IMG/VR virus record: IMGVR_UViG_3300025098_005131
Length of the DNA stretch: 64,000 nucleotides
DNA from: a virus
Lineage: Duplodnaviria; Caudoviricetes
Strand: one strand, 5' to 3'
Shown here piece by piece: positions 4,711 to 64,000 of this stretch. A program made the position numbers and the translations under genes. Below the pieces are notes generated by a model. The model did not search any database, was not told the origin of the DNA, and was given only the letters and a program-made list of their open reading frames with translations. Position 1 is the first letter of the stretch. Each line of letters starts with the position of its first letter.

Positions 4711-7700
4711 AATATGTTTGCCTCTATAATAAATGAATATCCAACGTTTGACTCTTTTTTCGTATATAGATTTTTACGAAAATCATCATAACTCTCTCTA
4801 TAATCTGAATTTTCATACACTTCTTTGTCTATTCTTCTAATTAACTCACTTCTTTCTATTTTTATATTAAATATATCATAATAAATATCGTCTGTGAATA
4901 TTTTTGCAAACTCTGTCATAGACATATTGTAGTCAAGCATTTTTAAAAAGTCATATGCATAAATCTGACTGTCAATAACCTCTAAATTGTTTAACAAGTC
5001 CATTGTTCCATTTTCTAAGTTTATAATACTATCAAAAACATCTTTTTCTTTTAAAAATACTTTCTTGAATTCTTGATCAGACATGTTTTCATATACGTTA
5101 GTTGTCATAGAAGATAAAATATTTTTTGACGACGTACTCTCTAAGTTTAGATCTTTTTCATTAAAAACTTTTTGTTTTACATAATCACAATATTTAACTG
5201 CATTAGAAGTTGCAATTTGATCATATATTAATGCATAAACGTCTTCGTTCTCTCTAATTGACCCATCTTCAGGCTCGAACAAGGCATTTTCAAAATTTGT
5301 TCCTTCAACTATGTTTTTAATATATAATTCTGCTGTATCTCTATTTAAAATAGACATTCTATTTTCTAAACTCTTAATATTATGATCAAAATATCCGACA
5401 AAATCATATGGATCAATTTGCTCAAAATTATTTTGTTCTTTAAGCAGTCTATAATGAAAAGGTAAGATATTTGTAAAACAAGGCATATAATAATAATTTA
5501 GTGGTTTAAAATAAACATCAGGAAATTTATGATTTACAATATTTATTTTAATATGCAATACTTTGTTTTCTAAAACTTCTTTTGCTAAATCATACTTAAT
5601 ACCTAATCTAATAATATCGATATTTGAATTTCTGTCTATACCTTGTTGTTCATATGTTCTATAAATTTTATGAATAGACTTTTTACATAGTTCTTTACTT
5701 AGTTCTTCTATCTTTTTATTTGGTCCAAACGCACCATCTTGAGAAAGAGAGTTTTCAAGATTTAAAATTCCTTGACTACTATTTAGCTTACTATACACGA
5801 AGTTTTGGTAAAGATATCTATCAATTGCATACTTTGATATTTTGTTTAATTTTGCATCATTATTAATGTATCTTAAGAAAGAAGGCAAACTATTTAAACC
5901 ATCACCTAAGTCTGCCAATAAGTTTTCTACTTCATTAAAACTACTGTTTATACTTCCAGAAATACTTTGTAACTGAATATTTTCCTTACTATATAACCAA
6001 TAGTGTAAAATATCATGACTTACTGCTTCAAGATCATTTGTATTACAAAAAGTATTATAACAAGCGTCCAAGTCATTTCTAACTTTAGTGTTTCCAGTGG
6101 GCAGTGCGCCTCCACTGAACACTTGCCTGCGCAGATCTCCCGGGACATAGACTGCGGCTCTAGCTGCCCGCTGGTGGTTTTTTAACTCTTCTCTAACCAC
6201 ATCCAAAACTTCATTGTCCCAAATAAGCTCTGGGCTTAAAGTAAACGTTGAATTTCCTTTTGAAACATCATTGTCGCTGCTATAAAGATTATCTCCATAA
6301 GTTCCTGATTGATTAAATTCAAATTTAGTTATTTTATCTATATTTTTCTTAATAGATAAGTTTGTAACTTGGTCGTAATAAAAAGAAAAATGCTCAGCAA
6401 TAGGCTTTATTAGATCATATACAACTTGAATAATACTATCATTGTTATTTATAAAGTCTGTTATACTAGATGCGTCATCAAAGTCTGAATTGTTATAATA
6501 ACTCATCACTTCAATAATACTATTTTTTAAATTTTTTGAAAGCGTCCCAACAGATTCTAATTTATAAAAGTCTTCAAGATTCATAGAATATGAAGTAGTA
6601 TAATTTAAATTATTTTTTAAACTTTCATACCTACTATTAACTTCATCTGTGCTGTTAGTATACGGGTTTATCATTTGTCTATAAAAAAGATTATCTGTGT
6701 CCAAGTTAAGCATAGCATCTTGGCCCTCTAGGATTGTATCATTATTTGTATCTGTTAAATTGTCCTCCATCACAATATAACTAATTTCTGATTTTTCTGA
6801 TGCTATATTAAATAAAACTTTTTTATTGTCTATGTTTTCTATATTTGCTGAAAAATTATCTTCACTGTTTATAGAAGATGTTTTCTCACATAAATAAGCG
6901 TCATAGTTAAATGATTTGCTTGTAATGAAATTTTTAAAAGACTTGTCATCTGAAGATAAAACATAACCTCTATTTCTAATATTTTGTCCGTCGCCAAACG
7001 CAATAATATCAGAGTAAAATAACTTCATAGGCTCTATGTTATTGCTAAATCTAAATTTATGCAGTATAAAAGGAAAAAGAAGTTGATATACTTCTCCACC
7101 TATTGTAGAAAGTTCTCCGTAACTATCATTTTGTTCATCTCTATTTGCGGCAGCAGTATTTAACTTATACTCGCTTCTTGCTTTGCTTGCACTTATTTTG
7201 CTTAAACACTGCTCACTTAAAGTCCTGATAGTAAAACTTTGTTGCTTTTTAAAATTTTCCGTGTCAAAGACTTTTCCTATATACTTGTTATAACTTCCGT
7301 TAGTTGCCTCATTTAATTCAGTATAACTACCAATATTAAAACCATTTTTTTGCATTAAAGCTACATAAACTAAGTACTTAGCAATATCCAAACTGTCATC
7401 CCCAGCAATCGCATCTGATAAAAGTTTTTCAAAGCCAAGAAACCACCAGTTTGTTTGGGAAATAGCTATTTTTGTTGATAGATTTAAATAATTTAAATAA
7501 GTTTTTTCTGATTTAAAAAATCCAACGGGAAAATAATTTGACATAAATTTTCTATAGTCTGAAGAATTTATGTCAAATTGAATATTACCGACTTGATTAT
7601 TTTCTAAAACATATTGATCTAAAGGCTTTACTTTTTCGCTGTTTAACAAAAAATTATTTTTTGAATAAAACTTTTCATTACTATTTAATAAAAACTGGCT

Positions 7701-52597: not shown

Positions 52598-52834
52598 ATG
52601 AGTGAACATACAACAACTTGTTTTAATGAACATAAAAAAAACAGCGTGTCTTGCAAAAATAAAAAATGCAGGTACTGGCACAAATTAAAAAGTGACAATA
52701 ACTGCATTATTAACGCTTCTCAAAAAAGAATTTATACTCTTCAAGAAGTAGGTGATTTGTTTGATATAACTCGAATGAGGGTATGTCAAATTGAAAAGTC
52801 TGCCATAAACAAGTTAAAGGCAAAGTCTCAATAA
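52598..52834 (+). CDS. Standalone sigma-70 region-4 HTH protein with a Cys/His-rich N-terminus
   Basis: YTLQEVGDLFDITRMRVCQIEKSAINKL matches region 4.2 (TL.EVG..F..TRERIRQIE.KAL.KL); N-terminal C..C..C.YWH..C. Confidence 0.8.
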   Translation: MSEHTTTCFNEHKKNSVSCKNKKCRYWHKLKSDNNCIINASQKRIYTLQEVGDLFDITRMRVCQIEKSAINKLKAKSQ

Positions 52835-52835
52835 A

Positions 52836-53069
52836 TTATCGATCCAACTTTCCTAGAGTAAATTTGACAAAGTCTCCTGATGTTGATTTTAGGAGTCTTA
52901 AACTCTTTCGAAGCCTTGTTCCAGCTGCTTTATTGCCATTTCCAGACTTAATTACGTCTGACTCCATACTTTCAATCATGAGCTTAATATAACTGTAAAA
53001 CTCTTGGTTAGTGCTAGGCTCTAATACTTCATCTACTTGTTCAAGTTGATCTAGTTCTTCTTGTGACAT
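52836..53069 (-). CDS. Histone H1-like (Hc1 family) nucleoid-associated protein
   Basis: GNKAAGTRLRKSL matches the Hc1 family core GNKAAGTRARK; acidic N-terminal extension; AGGAGA SD at 53076..53081. Confidence 0.75.
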   Translation of the reverse strand: MSQEELDQLEQVDEVLEPSTNQEFYSYIKLMIESMESDVIKSGNGNKAAGTRLRKSLRLLKSTSGDFVKFTLGKLDR

Positions 53070-55284: not shown

Positions 55285-55764
55285 TTAGGTTTTAAAACTT
55301 TGTAAAATAACATTTTCAGCCCAGTCAAGAGGATTTTTTAAGTAAGGCAGAAGCATTTCATATTTTTTTTCTTTACTTGATAAAGTAAAAGATTTGTGTT
55401 CTAATATACCTGTATGAGGATTTTTTCGTATCATTGGCTTATATAGACAGTCTTTTTTAATCTCAGCAATATACATTCTCAAAACGTGATTATTTATTTG
55501 TTTTTCTGAGAAAAAAGACTTTCCTACATTGTCGACAAAAACATAGTCATCACTTTTTAAATTTATTTCTTCATATGTTTCTCTTATTGCGCAATCTAAA
55601 GGAAATTCTCCTTCATCTATAGATCCTTTTGGAAAGTCGTAAAAACCGTCTAGGCCTTTCATGAAAAGATAAAGAATATTTTCTTCTAAGCCTTTAACTT
55701 TTTCATGTCTAATTCCTCTATTATCAAAAAAAACTATTATTCCAGCGCCTGTACATTTTTCCAT
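55285..55764 (-). CDS. Nudix hydrolase (Ap4A-hydrolase-like)
   Basis: GAGIIVF..YDFPKGSIDEGEFPLDCAIRETYEEINL is a Nudix box G-x5-E-x7-RE-xx-EE; AGGAG SD at 55775..55779. Confidence 0.9.
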   Translation of the reverse strand: MEKCTGAGIIVFFDNRGIRHEKVKGLEENILYLFMKGLDGFYDFPKGSIDEGEFPLDCAIRETYEEINLKSDDYVFVDNVGKSFFSEKQINNHVLRMYIAEIKKDCLYKPMIRKNPHTGILEHKSFTLSSKEKKYEMLLPYLKNPLDWAENVILQSFKT

Positions 55765-57778: not shown

Positions 57779-58282
57779 TTAATTATTAATATTTTTTGTC
57801 CTTAAATTTCTTGTAAAAATATGCATATAGTCTTCTTCCATATCTACATGGATATTGTTTTTATCTTTTTCTTCTTTACCCTGACTTTCTCTGTCTTCAA
57901 TATACAGTGACTCTTTACCTGACATTGTGTTAACGCTGTCTTCCAAGTAAAGTCCTTCAATATCAGCAACTAGTTGCTGATCTGTAATATTTCCAGCTGC
58001 ACCCTTACCGTCAGGAGCTGCACCCTTACCTCTAGGAGTGTGAATGTTTCTTCCTACTTCACTTATTATTTTTATATTTCTTGCTATTTCTTTGATTTTG
58101 TTTTTTTTAAAATATCTAGTTTCACAGCTTTCAAAAAAAGACAAAAGAGACTTTTCAAAACATTTATTTTTTTCAAGCAAAAAATCAAAATAAGCTACTT
58201 CTGATTCTTTTAACATAATTCCATAACTGTTATATAAAGCTTTAGATAATATTCTTTTTTGATTTTTATTTTTTTGTTTCAC
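57779..58282 (-). CDS. Hypothetical protein
   Basis: 167 aa; contains a 15-bp direct repeat (AGCTGCACCCTTACC at 57995 and 58016) encoding GKGAA twice. Confidence 0.6.
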   Translation of the reverse strand: MKQKNKNQKRILSKALYNSYGIMLKESEVAYFDFLLEKNKCFEKSLLSFFESCETRYFKKNKIKEIARNIKIISEVGRNIHTPRGKGAAPDGKGAAGNITDQQLVADIEGLYLEDSVNTMSGKESLYIEDRESQGKEEKDKNNIHVDMEEDYMHIFTRNLRTKNINN

Positions 58283-58541
58283 TGTCTATCCTTTTTTTAT
58301 CATTGTCTAATATTTCTACAGCAGCATTTACATATTTGTCTAAAGCTGCTTGTCCTAGTATATATCCTATTTGAATAAAGCCACTTGTAATAACAACTGT
58401 CATAAGTATAGCTAAAGAATAATGGTCTAATTTTCCTTGTAAATGAAATAGCAAATAAAAAATAACGCACTTCCATCCAAGTTCAGAAGTCATATATGCA
58501 ATAAATTTTTTACTTTTCATAGGTGTTTTATCTAGTAACAT
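58266..58541 (-). CDS. Small two-TM membrane protein (holin-like)
   Basis: 91 aa; two hydrophobic segments (LGWKCVIFYLLF; SLAILMTVVITSGFIQIGYILG) and a charged C-terminus. Confidence 0.5.
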   Translation of the reverse strand: MLLDKTPMKSKKFIAYMTSELGWKCVIFYLLFHLQGKLDHYSLAILMTVVITSGFIQIGYILGQAALDKYVNAAVEILDNDKKRIDSETKK

Positions 58542-58571
58542 TTTTGATTTGTCCTTATTTGTCTAACTTAT

Positions 58572-58583
58572 TGATAATTATTT
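58572..58583. promoter_or_regulatory. Bidirectional motif (ATAATTATTT on plus, ATAATTATCA on minus) between divergent genes
   Basis: The palindromic core ATAATTAT lies 23 nt before 58607(+) and 30 nt before 58541(-). Confidence 0.35.
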
Positions 58584-58606
58584 AATGAACAATAAAAGGA
58601 GTCAAT

Positions 58607-58864
58607 ATGCTTAAAAAGTATATAAAAATATTTCTCGAATCTTCTTTTGCAAATCAAAGTCAGAGCTTTTCTGACTTATTGAAGTCTATAGAAGATGAAC
58701 ATACAATAAAAAGAAAAAACTTAAAAACCAAAGAAATTTCATCTGAAAAAGACAAAATAAGATCAATTGAAGACATTAGTAATATTTTAAACCATTCAGG
58801 ACCTCCTAATAAAATACCTAGAAGTCATCTTTTCTTAAGTAAGAAGCCTAAGAAAAAAAGTTAG
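58607..58864 (+). CDS. Small hypothetical protein, first gene of the cyclase operon
   Basis: 85 aa; AGGAG SD at 58597..58601; basic C-terminus. Confidence 0.6.
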   Translation: MLKKYIKIFLESSFANQSQSFSDLLKSIEDEHTIKRKNLKTKEISSEKDKIRSIEDISNILNHSGPPNKIPRSHLFLSKKPKKKS

Positions 58865-58879
58865 TCACAGGTTAATATT

Positions 58880-59113
58880 ATGTTATTAGTTAGAAAATTA
58901 AAAATAAAAGATAATAATAAAAATACTGTTAGAGATCTAACTAAAAAAATGCCACCTCAAGGCTTTTGTCCATTATGCGAAAAAAAAGATAGTTTATGTG
59001 AATGTGAAAAGTTAAACTGTCATTGCAACATTGAAGCTATTAACTGTATTTGGCCTGAATGTTTATGTACTGTCTGTTTAGAGATAGATTGTGTATGTGA
59101 CAAAAATGAGTAG
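58880..59113 (+). CDS. Small Cys-rich (metallothionein-like) protein
   Basis: 12 Cys in the last 48 aa in CxxC and CxC patterns; its stop overlaps the likely cyclase ATG at 59106. Confidence 0.6.
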   Translation: MLLVRKLKIKDNNKNTVRDLTKKMPPQGFCPLCEKKDSLCECEKLNCHCNIEAINCIWPECLCTVCLEIDCVCDKNE

Positions 59114-59975
59114 CAGCCTTCCTGAAAATATTATAGAAGCTAAAATTGCAATTGTTCTAACAGATATAATAGGTAGTACAAAATTTGTGCAGAGAAATGG
59201 CTCTAGAATTGCAGCTCAATGGTTTGGTGTACACGACAAAGCAGTCATGAATTTCATACAAAGACACAACGGTCGTCTAGTCGACGCATCTGATGGTCAT
59301 TTAATGTATTTTGGATCTGTTGGAGACGCTATAGCCTTTGCTTTTGATTATAAAAAATTTTTAAGAATTAAAAAGTTTCCTTTTAGAAGTAGAGTTGGTA
59401 TACATTGGGATAAAATGTTAATTGTCAAAGCTGAAGAACATATAGTAAGAGCTGGCGGAAAAAGAATTAATCTTGAAGGCATAGGTAAAAATATTGCTGC
59501 AAGAACAATGTCTTTATGTGCTGCTGAGCAAATACTGCTTTCCGCTTCAGCATATAAGACGTACAAAGAACTCGGGCATAGAAACAGGTATATACCTGAT
59601 AATGCGTTAATTGCTTTAGTAGGATTGTACAAGTTTAAAGGTGTGCGTGATCCTGAATCTTTATATGCAATCGGCCTAATAGAAATGCAATTGCAGCCGC
59701 CTAAAGATAGCGAAAAAGCAAAAAGAATAGGTGGACATAAAAAAATAAAAACTAGATTAAAACATAAAAAAATGTCTGAAATATTTTGGTGGTTAGTTTA
59801 CAGAATAGCTTTTTTTGAGGCTTTAATAATAGTTTACTTTGTCTTTTATATATCTATGAAAGATAGTTTAAACCGTCTGATATTTGACATTACCGGTATA
59901 GACTTTAAGTATTTTTTAGGATGGCTACATCCTGCTATTAAATTTATACAAAACGTTTTAAACGAAGTGCTATAA
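59091..59975 (+). CDS. Class III nucleotidyl (adenylate/guanylate-type) cyclase with C-terminal membrane anchor
   Basis: VLTDIIGST (metal Asp 1), ASDGHLMYF (metal Asp 2), RSRVGIHW, GKNIAAR (catalytic Asn/Arg), EQILLS, YKFKGV; hydrophobic IFWWLVYRIAFFEALIIVYFVFYISM. Likely start is the ATG at 59106. Confidence 0.88.
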   Translation: MYVTKMSSSLPENIIEAKIAIVLTDIIGSTKFVQRNGSRIAAQWFGVHDKAVMNFIQRHNGRLVDASDGHLMYFGSVGDAIAFAFDYKKFLRIKKFPFRSRVGIHWDKMLIVKAEEHIVRAGGKRINLEGIGKNIAARTMSLCAAEQILLSASAYKTYKELGHRNRYIPDNALIALVGLYKFKGVRDPESLYAIGLIEMQLQPPKDSEKAKRIGGHKKIKTRLKHKKMSEIFWWLVYRIAFFEALIIVYFVFYISMKDSLNRLIFDITGIDFKYFLGWLHPAIKFIQNVLNEVL

Positions 59976-59994
59976 AAATAAAGGACTATAAAAA

Positions 59995-60480
59995 ATGAAA
60001 AAAAATATTAATGAAAAAGAAGAAAAATCAAATAAACAGTTTACGCAGACAGAAAAAGCAAAAAGAGGTTGGTGGTTTTCTGTTATTTTCATGGTTCTTG
60101 TTATAAGCTTAATAATGTTTCTAGCATTTACTCCTCTCCAGAAAGACAATCGAGACATAATAGTAGGAATGATTGGTATGATTACAGGTGCTATATCTTC
60201 AATGCTTTCAATAGCTGCAGGAAGAGATCCATCTGAGGTTGAAGAGCTTAAAGACAAACTTTCATCTGCAAATGCTGACCGAGCAGCTTTAATAGGTAGG
60301 CTAAGAGACTCTCAAATACAACTTCAGCTTGCAAGAGAACAAATATTTGAGTTGCAAACAGCTGTTATAGATAAGCTTTCACTTTTCAGCGGTGAAAAAC
60401 CAATAAAAACAAAAAGACAAGATCAAGTTGTTCTACATCCAGAAGTAGACGAATGGATGCCTAAAATAGACAATAATTAA
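59995..60480 (+). CDS. Two-TM protein with C-terminal coiled coil
   Basis: GWWFSVIFMVLVISLIMFLAF and IIVGMIGMITGAISSMLSIAAG, then EVEELKDKL..LAREQIFELQ; AAGGA SD 19-nt intergenic after the cyclase. Confidence 0.75.
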   Translation: MKKNINEKEEKSNKQFTQTEKAKRGWWFSVIFMVLVISLIMFLAFTPLQKDNRDIIVGMIGMITGAISSMLSIAAGRDPSEVEELKDKLSSANADRAALIGRLRDSQIQLQLAREQIFELQTAVIDKLSLFSGEKPIKTKRQDQVVLHPEVDEWMPKIDNN

Positions 60481-60499: not shown

Positions 60500-61435
60500 T
60501 TATATTTTTGAAGTAAACTGGCTTTCATTTGTTATTGATATTATTAGGTCTAAATGATTTGAATGATTACATATGTATTTAATTGTATTCATATCTTTCT
60601 TTTTTATTATTTTAGAAAAAATTGAATTATACCACTCGTTTCCTTTATGTTTTATTGCAAGTCCCTGCGCTGCATCGTCTGTAGGGTCATCTGGTGTAAG
60701 TTGTGGTAATTTATGTTTTTCTGAGTCGTCTTTGTTAATGTCAAGCTGTTCTGTTTCTACGTCACTTCTATTAGCATATATTTGCCATTTTTTTTGTGCC
60801 TCAACAGTTGAAGAATAACGATCAGAGCATATTCCTTTTTCTCTAACAACAGAAACAAACTCAAGCATTATTTCAAAAAGTACAGAACTTACTCCAATAG
60901 TTGACTTATGTGTAAGCATATGTCTATATGCTCCTTTGCCGTATCCAGGAGACCAATCTTTGTCTGTTGACTCAAAGTCAATCGTACTAGAAACAGGACT
61001 GTTGCTGTTAGGCCAAGCAGATGTAAAATTAGAAAAATCAAACTTTACAAAACCTTCATACTCGTCTTCATAAAGTAAAATTTTACCAACAATGCTGTTG
61101 TCATTTTTTAATTCTCTTTCTTGCTGAACGTAGTTCTCAAGTTTATTAATTATACTAAATATTTTGGAGTTAACACCGTATGTAGCGTTATTAGAATTAA
61201 ATTTTTCTATTTTAGCTTTATCTTTAATAGGATCAAATTCATTGTAGAATTCTTTACTTTTAGAAGAAACTTGATTGTAATTATCTTCAGTCTCATCTTC
61301 GTAACCAAAATCAAACTTCCAGTCATCTTCATCAACATGATCAGGCTTTTTTACAAGATTAAATGCTTCTTGAATTGAATTAAACCTATTCCATTCTTTG
61401 ACTATTTTTTTATATTCTTTTCTATTTATTAACAT
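60500..61435 (-). CDS. Hypothetical protein, paralog of 61447..62148
   Basis: Shares a C-terminal domain of about 100 aa with its neighbour (L.(E/D)IM.E.VS...C.DR....EA...W.....R.D+.T.QLDI..D....K.P.LTP...DD..Q...I.HKG..WY.S.FSK). Confidence 0.75.
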   Translation of the reverse strand: MLINRKEYKKIVKEWNRFNSIQEAFNLVKKPDHVDEDDWKFDFGYEDETEDNYNQVSSKSKEFYNEFDPIKDKAKIEKFNSNNATYGVNSKIFSIINKLENYVQQERELKNDNSIVGKILLYEDEYEGFVKFDFSNFTSAWPNSNSPVSSTIDFESTDKDWSPGYGKGAYRHMLTHKSTIGVSSVLFEIMLEFVSVVREKGICSDRYSSTVEAQKKWQIYANRSDVETEQLDINKDDSEKHKLPQLTPDDPTDDAAQGLAIKHKGNEWYNSIFSKIIKKKDMNTIKYICNHSNHLDLIISITNESQFTSKI

Positions 61436-61446
61436 ATATTTTCCTT

Positions 61447-62148
61447 TTATAAAATTCCTTTTAATATAAACAATGGATCATATGATAACTTTTCAATAAC
61501 ATATGCATTGTTTTTATAATATCCTTTTGAAAACGGGCTTTCATACCAACTAGTTCCTTTATGTGATATAGAAACATTCTGATAAAAGTCATCCTCTAAC
61601 TGCGGAGTTAAGTTAGGAAATTTTTTATTATCCAAAGAATCATTTTCAATATCTAGCTGCACAGTTTTTATATCATTTCTTTCGTAAAAATAATTTTCCC
61701 ATAAAGATTTGGCTTCATTAGATATCTCAAATCTATCTGGACATAAAACAGAATTATCTTTTGAGACATATTCTATCATGATATCGTACATCAATGGGCC
61801 TAAATCATACTTTACAAACTCTGTAAAATCAATTACATAACAATTTCTAATGTTGCTTTCTTCATCAATAACATTACTATATTTAAATTTTTTAAAGCTA
61901 ATATAAGCTACATCGTCAATAATAAAGCTAGTGTTTTGTGAATCAACAATTTCAGAAATTAATACGAATTCGTTTACTTCTTTAGTTATTCTTATACTTA
62001 ACTTTTGGTTTTCTACTTCGCATATCTTTTTTTTTGCTTTTTCAATTTGATTTTCTATGTTTAGACTTTCTTTTAAAATGTTGGAATTTGTATTTCTAAT
62101 AAAGTAAACCCATTCTTTAAAAATTTCTTTATTATTATTTTTATTCAT
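61447..62148 (-). CDS. Hypothetical protein, paralog of 60500..61435 (possible GNAT-like fold)
   Basis: LGPLMYDIMIEYVS..LCPDRFEISNEAKSLWENY; AGGAG SD at 62154..62158. Confidence 0.7.
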   Translation of the reverse strand: MNKNNNKEIFKEWVYFIRNTNSNILKESLNIENQIEKAKKKICEVENQKLSIRITKEVNEFVLISEIVDSQNTSFIIDDVAYISFKKFKYSNVIDEESNIRNCYVIDFTEFVKYDLGPLMYDIMIEYVSKDNSVLCPDRFEISNEAKSLWENYFYERNDIKTVQLDIENDSLDNKKFPNLTPQLEDDFYQNVSISHKGTSWYESPFSKGYYKNNAYVIEKLSYDPLFILKGIL

Positions 62149-62554: not shown

Positions 62555-64000
62555 ATGATTATAATTGCTGAAAATAAACAGAATCATTATTTACTTAAGC
62601 ATTTTTTTAAAGAAATATCTAGTATAAGATTGAACGAAAGTTTTAAACAGAATCAGGCAGGAGAGCACACTGCGTTAGACATTAGCGCGCTAGACTTTAA
62701 TGATACTGTTGTTGATAATCCAATAATAACAGATCAACCAGAAACAATAGTAAATAAAGTTGACTTAGAAAAAGCTTCAATAATAAAACCTAAAATGAAT
62801 AAACTACTAAAAGGTCTTAAAAAAGGCTTAAAAATATCAGCGATTGCAGCTGCAATTTTTTTTGGAGGAGACAATTCAGCCGAAGAGCTTAAAGCTTTAC
62901 AGAAAATTGCTAATGATAATAATGTTGAAGTACAAGAAGTAATAGAAAAAACAAGCAATCAAATTGTGAAACAACCTCTAGCTCAATATAACACATCAGC
63001 AAATATAGTAGTAGACGACAATAAAGATATCAATACAACATTGAAAGCTAAAGTCAAGCCAAAAGAAAAGTCTGTTCCTGTTGCTTCAAGTAACAAAACA
63101 AAGTTATTAGAAAGAGCTAAAAGTAGAATAAAAGTATTTGAAGGATTCAAGCCGTACCCTTACAAAGATAGAACTGGTGTTTCAATAGGATACGGCACTT
63201 TTTTTGCTGACAATATAGGCCCTGATAGTTTGCCTGAAGCATGGATTGATGATTTGTACGCAAAATGTGGTATATCTGAAGAAGAAAAAAGTCAGTATGA
63301 ACAAGAAAGTCAAAAAGAATTATTAGCTAAATTCAGCAAGTCTATTGAAAGTAAAAAAGCAAATCTTGATAAAATAATTTCTAAAGTTGAAAGTAAAATT
63401 AAGTTAAAGAATGCTGAACTGAAAAAATGGAAAAAGATAAGAGATGCAAAGAAAAGAAAAAATTATACTGAAACAGTTGAGACAGAAATTAAAAGACTAG
63501 ATAAAAGAAAAGCTTCTTTAGAAGATCAAAAGTCAGAATTAGACTTAGAAAAAGAAGTAGCTGAGTCTAGAGGATTAATATCATTAAAACTTGCTGAAAG
63601 GTGCTTGGAAGGATATATTAGTAATTCAATAGATTATCATAAAGGTCTATCAGACGGTTATTTGTTTAAAATGGACGATGAAGTACAAGATGTAGTTATT
63701 GACATGTCTTATAACGTAGGAATGTATTTTTTAGAAAAAGAATTCCCTAGTTTTAATGGTTTTGTTGAAGAGTATATAGAATCAATTAAAAGCGATGATA
63801 GTCAAAAAGAAATTGAAGCTTTAAAAAACATGTATGAAGAAATTAAAGACAGATCTCCCGACTATCATAAACAACAATCTTCAAATAGAAGAGCAGAAAA
63901 AAATACAACATTGCTAAATCAAGCTTACGAAAGAGCAAAAAATAGTTTAAAAGAAAATGTGTACTCTTTAAAAAATGCTTATAAAATACTTTTTAGTTAA
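62555..64000 (+). CDS. GH24-like (phage lysozyme) muramidase with hydrophobic N-terminal segment and large coiled-coil insertion
   Basis: IKVFEGFKPYPYKDRTGVSIGYGT (E-x8-D), then ISLKLAERCL and DEVQDVVIDMSYNVG of the C-lobe; TAA stop at 63998..64000. Confidence 0.75.
   Translation: MIIIAENKQNHYLLKHFFKEISSIRLNESFKQNQAGEHTALDISALDFNDTVVDNPIITDQPETIVNKVDLEKASIIKPKMNKLLKGLKKGLKISAIAAAIFFGGDNSAEELKALQKIANDNNVEVQEVIEKTSNQIVKQPLAQYNTSANIVVDDNKDINTTLKAKVKPKEKSVPVASSNKTKLLERAKSRIKVFEGFKPYPYKDRTGVSIGYGTFFADNIGPDSLPEAWIDDLYAKCGISEEEKSQYEQESQKELLAKFSKSIESKKANLDKIISKVESKIKLKNAELKKWKKIRDAKKRKNYTETVETEIKRLDKRKASLEDQKSELDLEKEVAESRGLISLKLAERCLEGYISNSIDYHKGLSDGYLFKMDDEVQDVVIDMSYNVGMYFLEKEFPSFNGFVEEYIESIKSDDSQKEIEALKNMYEEIKDRSPDYHKQQSSNRRAEKNTTLLNQAYERAKNSLKENVYSLKNAYKILFS

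Follow-up and report, generated by a model that had tools for sequence, protein, structure and literature searches.

Cyclic-nucleotide signalling in the conflict between phages and bacteria is known mainly from the host side, in Pycsar, CBASS, type III CRISPR and Panoptes, and what is known of phages is mainly that they destroy such signals or soak them up as sponges. What, then, does a phage do with a nucleotide cyclase of its own, anchored in a membrane and encoded next to a small membrane protein? The question is raised by positions 58607-60480 of a 64,000-nucleotide (nt) stretch of Caudoviricetes DNA (IMG/VR record IMGVR_UViG_3300025098_005131), which is referred to below, at its full length, as the window. 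An initial annotation, made from the sequence alone, had described this locus as a four-gene cyclic-nucleotide module with a Pycsar-like layout, and the gene arrangement it gave is borne out by the coordinates of the open reading frames (ORFs): four ORFs of 85, 77, 289 and 161 amino acids (aa), here called g1, g2, the cyclase and g4, follow one another on the plus strand, 15 nt apart at the first junction, overlapping by 8 nt at the second and 19 nt apart at the third, and the block is enclosed by ORFs of the minus strand (58266-58541 and 60500-61435). Gene calls for identical proteins in public assemblies give the same four genes. The conserved unit is nevertheless one of two genes, the cyclase and g4, and not of four, because g1 is without homologues in the loci fetched and g2 is confined to part of a T4-like lineage. 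The two genes and their parts, including the transmembrane (TM) helices, are laid out as follows.

59106..59975, plus strand: cyclase, 289 aa from its ATG; a GTG at 59091 would give 294 aa
59106-59750, plus strand: catalytic class III cyclase-homology domain, aa 1-215 (AF2, Foldseek and profile matches)
about aa 197-224 of the cyclase, plus strand: conserved basic juxtamembrane stretch (alignment)
59778-59861, plus strand: cyclase TM helix, aa 225-252 (hydropathy, one strong segment)
beyond the cyclase TM helix, plus strand: two more C-terminal helices
59995..60480, plus strand: g4, the 161-aa partner, a 2TM/coiled-coil-like protein
60058-60144, plus strand: TM1 of g4, aa 22-50, with a basic N-terminus ahead of it (hydropathy)
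between TM1 and TM2 of g4, plus strand: 8-residue loop in which N52 and R53 are invariant (alignment)
60157-60219, plus strand: TM2 of g4, aa 55-75, rich in Gly, Ser and Ala, with G58, G61 and G65 invariant (hydropathy, alignment)
about 60229-60384, plus strand: acidic segment of g4 (DPSEVEELKD), then a conserved helical, coiled-coil-like tail

The 289-aa product is, by its modelled fold and its catalytic residues, a class III cyclase-homology protein. A first AF2 model of the full-length protein was poor (pLDDT 65) and was replaced by a model of the catalytic domain built on a deeper alignment of 50 sequences, which reached a pLDDT of 95.5. In Foldseek the closest structures are those of two mycobacterial adenylyl cyclases, Rv1900c and Ma1120 (prob 1.00, target-normalised TM-score 0.86-0.92), and the top 50 are all class III adenylyl or guanylyl cyclase structures. 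A profile of the family likewise matches Rv1900c and Ma1120 in the PDB at E values of 9e-22 and 2e-21, and reaches the solved PycC uridylate cyclase 8jsz at only 3.8e-4; the PycC models of PADLOC match weakly (E 6e-4 to 0.02). Together with the TM helix at aa 225-252, these results uphold the proposal of a membrane-anchored class III cyclase. Among curated families, the LipJ adenylate cyclase of NCBIfam matches at E 5e-9, and Pfam PF00211 gives no match to the window protein even at E<=1, although one relative, P0122, passes it (32.1 bits, cut-off 21.9). The best family match is TIGR04510, at E 6.8e-35. The likeness to this family, put forward earlier from a residue pattern, thus holds for the domain and fails for membership: the score is 120.8 bits against a cut-off of 400, covering profile positions 7-204 of 814, and the protein has 289 aa rather than an architecture of about 814 residues, is surrounded by phage genes and belongs to a module without cellular carriers. 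The neighbourhood to be expected of a true member would presumably be peptide-modification genes in Xanthomonadaceae or Myxococcota. A T4-type capsid-targeting leader, with cleavage between NIIE and the Ala that follows, was also considered and rejected, because Glu11 lies within strand beta-1 of the confident model and is conserved in non-T4 phages too.

The motifs TDIIGST, VDASDG, RINLEGIGKNIAAR and FKG are all present in the cyclase, and a survey of 60 full-length, partner-linked relatives shows how strictly they are kept. In profile alignments D20 and D63 fall on the metal-binding Asp residues of Ma1120 and Rv1900c, and D60 falls under the adenine-specifying Lys of Ma1120, a position that we take to be Asn342 of Rv1900c. 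Counting back from the catalytic Arg in GKNIAAR, R133 is that Arg, N129 is the catalytic Asn and N122 occupies the second specificity position. D20, D60, S62, D63, R96, H100, K119, E124, K128, R133 and K178 are invariant in all 60 relatives, and N129 is kept in 57. The metal-binding pair recognised earlier is confirmed by alignment to solved cyclases, as is the Asp at the site where adenylyl cyclases have Lys and guanylyl cyclases Glu, and the catalytic Asn and Arg are confirmed by their positions in the motif; the Asn at the second site is real in the window protein but not a general feature, since position 122 is clade-specific, with Asn in 19 relatives and Glu in 41.

The pair that specifies a purine, Lys/Asp of adenylyl cyclases or Glu/Cys(Ser) of guanylyl cyclases, is thus missing, and Asp60 and Asn122 stand in its place. 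Judged from sequence, this absence alone would not exclude cyclase activity. Rv1900c is an active adenylyl cyclase although its Lys site holds Asn and its catalytic Asn is replaced by His, and Rv0386 is another, with Gln/Asn instead of the canonical pair. By the same token, the non-standard base specificity proposed at the outset is possible, and the Asp/Asn combination from which it was argued would not be enough to establish it; an acidic pocket of Asp with Glu or Asn does not reveal the base, and a purine would be the default guess.

The partner, g4, is a new, viral-only family of membrane proteins. Its N- and C-termini are both predicted by the positive-inside rule to be cytoplasmic, on the same side as the cyclase domain. 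Members share 49-90% identity across backgrounds with GC contents of 26-54%, the conservation extends over the full length of the protein, and it is stronger than that of the cyclase. The metagenome family comprises 1,528 clusters, with lengths of about 155-165 aa among those listed, and none of the best 120 of these clusters carries an informative name. No Pfam family scores over threshold on the window protein or on 25 members of the family, and these sequences contain neither the cyclic mononucleotide (cNMP)-binding domain PF00027 nor a TIR domain. The earlier statement that g4 has no recognisable nucleotide-binding domain, and that the Pycsar analogy is one of layout only, agrees with this result and with the affinities of the enzyme, which lie with adenylyl cyclases (E 1e-21) rather than with PycC (4e-4). 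SLATT_fungal matches 17 of the 25 members, with a best E of 2.3e-4 and none over the threshold of 26.5 bits, and NF033635 scores 14.7 bits against a cut-off of 35. AbrB, an unrelated polytopic membrane family, matches 22 of the 25 with a best E of 1.3e-4, and because it does so equally well, the SLATT signal may be generic TM similarity. No SLATT_fungal members for a profile-profile comparison were found in 401 Bacteroidota genomes. Against solved structures g4 has no relative (best E 0.14), and in the ESM Atlas its neighbours are unnamed viral clusters, with no named cluster matched.

That the cyclase and g4 belong together is evident from how they are distributed. A cyclase-based scan of IMG/VR gave 19 loci, and a g4-based scan gave 199, of which 80 were fetched and examined. 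A cyclase homologue is present in all 80, directly upstream of g4 in 73, separated from it by inserted genes in six and downstream of it in one. Among 64 unique cyclase-g4 pairs the frames overlap by 4-14 nt in 42, and the gene order is inverted once (L082). Pairwise distances of the two proteins are correlated (Mantel r 0.76, reached by 0 of 2000 permutations), and five phage records each carry one cyclase and one g4 copy. The linkage first suspected from a single locus is therefore stronger than sequence alone could show, recurring in unrelated backbones, and cyclase homologues do co-occur with the 2TM gene. The suggestion that all four genes form a unit in other phages did not survive: among the 19 cyclase loci g1 has no homologue at all, and g2 homologues stand directly upstream of the cyclase in eight, all of the T4-like lineage, and are absent from the 32-36-kb phage loci and the non-T4 jumbo loci.

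The carriers are phages of several kinds. The window DNA has no match among GenBank phages; an identical cyclase is encoded on a 277,787-bp contig, and a close relative is a complete genome of 239.5 kb with terminal repeats and a T4-type Gp23 capsid gene. Since, in addition, the helicase beside the module shows about 30% identity to those of cultured jumbo phages, and near-identical window DNA occurs in marine metagenomes of several studies, the carrier is taken to be an uncultured marine jumbo phage with a T4-type capsid. RNA records containing the region or the cyclase gene were looked for, and none was listed. The pair is found on three backbones: T4-capsid jumbo genomes, a 296.6-kb genome without Gp23, and genomes of 32-36.5 kb, in which it lies between the genes for TerL and portal. 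The GC content of pair loci ranges from 0.26 to 0.54, and the TerL of one small (32-kb) phage matched nothing in the four other pair-bearing records searched, which are larger or low in GC. No tyrosine integrase was found in four records of 32-36.5 kb, each at least 91% complete, and the pair-bearing phages appear to be lytic. Neither cyclase nor g4 has a match in 50,697 GenBank phage records, and a search of 185,579 cellular species genomes returned no true match; the single candidate, in a Flavobacterium metagenome-assembled genome, was dismissed as a chance RLRDAQIQL in an apparent outer-membrane protein with no cyclase nearby. Three backbones and the lack of a true cellular match together indicate a phage-only two-gene cassette that has moved between unrelated, apparently lytic phages. 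At least 520 metagenome clusters contain the cyclase. Its marine abundance, the strong constraint on it, its exchange between unrelated phages and its share of about 4% of a 35-kb genome argue that the cassette has a substantial fitness effect.

The cyclase also has a wider family, in which the phage proteins form the small end. An exhaustive profile search retrieved 2,308 proteins, the top matches being small proteins of about 270-290 aa with hydrophobic C-termini, followed by proteins of 800-1,400 aa from unlabelled genomes or metagenomes in which the domain is N-terminal or internal (E 1e-25 to 1e-35). In the few large relatives that were scanned the domain is fused to STAND NTPase, TPR, Ser/Thr kinase, WD40 or ECF-sigma modules, and because of these architectures the large multidomain relatives are taken as cellular. 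Phage and large bacterial proteins share the signatures [IV]-D-x-[ST]-D-G and E-G-x-x-K-x-x-A-A-R and even a P-P-x-x-S-E-K-x-K-R tail. Cyclase domains of this general kind recur across NTP-dependent conflict systems (PMC7159879); no paper on TIGR04510 itself was found in the searchable literature.

A distant branch of small cyclases, 32-37% identical to the window protein in the catalytic domain, lacks g4 and has a partner of its own. In six of six cases examined (L100 at 5693-6819, L101, L102 and L140-L142) the gene immediately before the cyclase encodes another protein, 90-110 aa long. Five of these proteins are complete; each has one TM helix, a coiled coil and a stop codon that overlaps or abuts the start of the cyclase gene. 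The sixth, truncated at the edge of its contig, carries the invariant R-x-G-R motif as well. The pair in L100 lies within a contractile-tail cluster of tube, LysM, spike and gp25 baseplate genes, and that in L140 adjoins terminase and portal genes. A comparison by hhalign found no relation between g4 and the 1TM/coiled-coil partner of this branch.

A tentative answer to the question, held with somewhat less than even confidence, is that the two proteins constitute a two-subunit membrane cyclase in which g4 acts in trans as transducer or dimeriser, so that a cNMP is made during lytic infection. The C-terminal TM helix would hold the catalytic domain of the cyclase at the cytoplasmic face of the inner membrane, where the enzyme and g4 may assemble into a heteromeric complex. 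Within it g4 would be the source, in trans, of a membrane and coiled-coil part through which the catalytic domains are dimerised and gated, perhaps when a cue reaches the membrane. In the course of lytic infection such a complex would produce a 3',5'-cyclic mononucleotide, whose targets could be receptors of the host or the complex as such; conceivable purposes are the reprogramming of the host, the timing of lysis or the exclusion of rival phages. A physical complex is favoured mainly because an anchored cyclase repeatedly pairs with a membrane-plus-coiled-coil protein. That g4 would be a subunit rather than the receptor of a diffusible signal is suggested by the anchoring of both proteins in the membrane with their soluble parts on the same side, by the conservation of g4 over its full length and above that of the enzyme, and by the distant branch with its own TM-plus-coiled-coil gene. 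The signal would be read by host proteins or by the complex, since the cNMP-binding domain PF00027 is absent from five related phage records.

Several observations weigh against such a two-subunit cyclase. In 7 of the 64 pairs, 1.2-3.9 kb of small opposite-strand genes separate the cyclase from g4, so that co-translation is not essential. The catalytic Asn is replaced by Ala in three of the 60 partner-linked cyclases, and Pro, Ala or His takes its place in most of the cellular and distant relatives, which means that the chemistry of the subfamily is not certain; no characterised member of it was found in the searchable literature. The partner has no recognisable domain, and its regulatory role is argued from topology and linkage only. 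Moreover, the TM region of the cyclase is poorly conserved and g4 highly so, which is not expected of a tight TM-TM interface.

Other explanations of the pair have to be set beside this one. Its form recalls Pycsar and CBASS, and the cyclase might accordingly signal upon a cue, such as superinfection, to a g4 that is a nucleotide-gated 2TM pore and that depolarises or kills the cell, with exclusion or lysis timing as the outcome. A cyclase gene followed by one for a small TM protein is indeed the layout of Pycsar (PMC11224242), the weak PADLOC matches to PycC point the same way, and SLATT, which shows its sub-threshold signal in 17 of 25 g4 proteins, is a predicted nucleotide-responsive 2TM pore (PMC7159879). 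The Gly/Ser/Ala-rich TM2 with its three invariant Gly residues would suit a pore, and in the lineage of the window a lysozyme-like gene lies 2 kb downstream. This explanation is nonetheless unlikely, though not negligible, for no sensor domain, cNMP-binding or other, scores over threshold in g4, and PF00027 is missing from the five related records too; AbrB scores on g4 as well as SLATT does; the membrane anchor of the cyclase is unneeded for a diffusible signal; the module is absent from cellular genomes and resides in integrase-less lytic phages; and in the small phages the pair has TerL and portal as its neighbours and is not part of any recognisable lysis cassette. A reading of the locus as a lysis cassette, which leans on the lysozyme-like gene in one lineage and is unsupported in small phages, was likewise abandoned. 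If, on the other hand, the cyclase merely raised cAMP or cGMP for CRP-type receptors of the host, with g4 as a membrane chaperone or anchor, it would fit well that the closest solved relatives are adenylyl cyclases, that a host receptor is the simplest reader when no phage-encoded cNMP receptor is found in five records, and that the module is carried by lytic phages. Such pure host reprogramming leaves unexplained why g4 is conserved above the enzyme and along its whole soluble tail and was never seen without the cyclase, and it is considered improbable.

No more probable than that is a pair whose membrane function is unrelated to second messengers, with a cyclase-homology domain that binds nucleotide or carries out some other nucleotidyl transfer. 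The failure of the window protein to match PF00211, the missing purine-specifying pair, the loss of the catalytic Asn in most cellular and distant relatives and in three linked ones, the merely 'putative' cyclase status of TIGR04510 itself and the existence of inactive cNMP-cyclase domains in conflict systems (PMC7159879) would all be in keeping with it. They are countered by the invariance of the metal-binding Asp pair, the Arg and the Lys of FKG, by the Asn kept in 57 of 60 relatives, and by a fold that closely matches active adenylyl cyclases. Rv1900c is active despite its non-canonical residues. A last account is that cyclase and g4 are neighbours through shared genome ancestry with no functional link. 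Synteny does extend over the entire neighbourhood (helicase, g0, GIY-YIG) within the T4-like lineage, g0 being the divergent gene next to the block, and in some relatives other genes separate the pair. The recurrence of the pair in backbones without common flanking genes, TerL or capsid type, its usually overlapping frames, the single inversion of its order and its presence at 80 of 80 loci have already brought this account into disfavour, and it is very improbable.

Around the two-gene unit, the window has the low GC content of 25-39%, large ORFs that are mostly on the minus strand, and no tRNA genes. The immediate surroundings of the pair contain the following features.

58266..58541, minus strand: g0, a membrane protein of 91 aa, divergent from the block and often found beside the pair in jumbo phages
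58549..58600, plus strand: promoter-like TTGTCC-18-GATAAT (58549-58578), then an AAGGAG Shine-Dalgarno sequence, before g1; promoter role unproven
58607..58864, plus strand: g1, an ORF of 85 aa, rich in Lys and preceded by a good Shine-Dalgarno sequence; strain-specific and outside the conserved module
58880..59113, plus strand: g2, a 77-aa Cys-rich mini-protein, ending 8 nt inside the cyclase ORF; an accessory restricted to one lineage

Shine-Dalgarno sequences precede both ends of the block, AAGGAG 5 nt ahead of the g1 ATG and AAAGGA 8 nt ahead of the g4 ATG. The block does have a ribosome-binding site of its own, as had been proposed; the accompanying promoter-like motif exists, and the region holds 12 such matches against 18.4 +/- 4.1 in shuffled sequences, which is not above chance. 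A promoter of the form GTGTAA-N17/18-TATAAT does not occur in the window. Scans of Pfam, PHROG and NCBIfam gave no match for g1 under E 0.03 and none for g2. In the latter, 11 Cys residues are invariant across the six sequences compared, and it is probably a metal-binding mini-protein. In the closest relative (L001) the spacing from g0 to g2 is only 75 nt. The gene g0 adjoins the pair in most T4-like loci, with varying order and strand, and its family is found on many large phage contigs with GC contents of 0.26-0.47 and lengths of up to 376 kb, mostly without the pair nearby. As a third component of the module it was rejected, since 22 of 36 g0 loci have no cyclase or g4 within 6 kb.

Further observations concern neighbouring genes. 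In the relatives L012 (6844-10000), L008 (6853-8519) and L006 (6874-10813), three to seven small minus-strand genes stand between cyclase and g4; the inserted genes of T4-like relatives have similar N-termini (MTYI..., MSHN...) and resemble a mobile or expandable cassette family. Downstream of the module, proteins of 311 aa (60500-61435, minus strand) and 233 aa (61447-62148, minus strand) match one and the same ORF of L003, at 34.6% and 59.5% identity, which suggests that they are paralogues; neither has a family match, and their number varies among relatives. From 62555 to 64000 on the plus strand a 481-aa protein is encoded whose L007 orthologue weakly matches Phage_lysozyme (E 0.002), and on identical contigs this lysozyme-like gene is followed, just past the window end, by a DUF481 gene of outer-membrane beta-barrel type (L152:14020-14790), an unusual pairing for a phage. 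Upstream, Pfam labels on identical contigs point to a 78-aa protein consisting of sigma-70 region 4 only (52598-52834, plus strand), a 77-aa Hc1 histone-like protein (52836-53069, minus strand) and a NUDIX hydrolase (55285-55764, minus strand) near a PhoH/PIN gene.

In the searchable literature no description was found of a phage-encoded class III cyclase with a dedicated membrane partner, or of SLATT together with a cyclase. At its broadest, the proposal is that several unrelated marine lytic lineages own a heteromeric membrane second-messenger synthase, composed of an acidic-pocket class III cyclase and a 2TM/coiled-coil subunit not described before. The cyclic nucleotide it makes may be a non-canonical one, and the phage would use it to monitor or steer the condition of the host membrane, whether to time lysis, to exclude rivals or to block host immunity. 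Such a pathway would be distinct from Pycsar, CBASS and host cAMP; in this full extent it is doubtful. Apparently lytic phages would then carry the synthase themselves, an unexpected carrier with a new partner family, and the cassette offers a first biological handle on the uncharacterised D-x-S-D-G (TIGR04510-like) cyclase subfamily.

How the pair stands to known systems depends on which part is compared. With Rv1900c (LipJ; PDB 1ybt/1ybu) and Ma1120 (4wp8, 5d0e) the phage cyclase shares the fold, the metal-binding Asp pair and the catalytic Arg, and like Rv1900c it is non-canonical at the adenine-Lys site. It is only 22-25% identical to them, however. Its Lys site is occupied by Asp and its Asp site by Asn or Glu, the Asn/Arg motif follows an invariant E-G-x-x-K, and the insert behind the GIH strand is longer; in addition, the protein has a C-terminal TM anchor, is phage-encoded and is tied to a membrane partner. 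The best sequence match, with shared signatures, is to TIGR04510, a 'putative peptide modification system cyclase', and to the cyclase-STAND/TPR/kinase proteins; these are cytoplasmic, multidomain, cellular proteins of 800-1,400 aa, mostly without the catalytic Asn, whereas the phage cyclase has 289 aa, keeps the Asn and ends in a TM helix.

Membrane-bound class III cyclases, such as M. tuberculosis Rv1625c and the mammalian transmembrane adenylyl cyclases, combine a TM anchor and a signalling helix in cis. As is proposed here, their catalytic domain lies at the cytoplasmic face beside a TM-plus-coiled-coil element that sets the catalytic dimer; in the phage pair this element would be a separate polypeptide and the cyclase has its own C-terminal anchor, so that the likeness is one of proposed mechanism, not of homology. 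PycC, which we take to be soluble, differs in this respect from the membrane-anchored phage cyclase. Pycsar (PycC with PycTM or PycTIR) has the same two-gene layout of a class III-type cyclase and then a small membrane protein, and it is a bacterial defence in which a cyclic-nucleotide-binding domain forms part of the effector (Tal et al. 2021; summary in PMC11224242). Membership of the phage pair in Pycsar was rejected, as g4 has no such domain, the cyclase resembles PycC only marginally, and the module is carried by phages, apparently lytic ones, instead of by the host. The SLATT 2TM effectors (Burroughs et al. 2015; PMC7159879) resemble g4 in having two TM helices and then a helix, and g4 differs from them in scoring below the curated cut-off and in being accompanied, in place of a SLOG, SMODS or TIR partner, by its cyclase.

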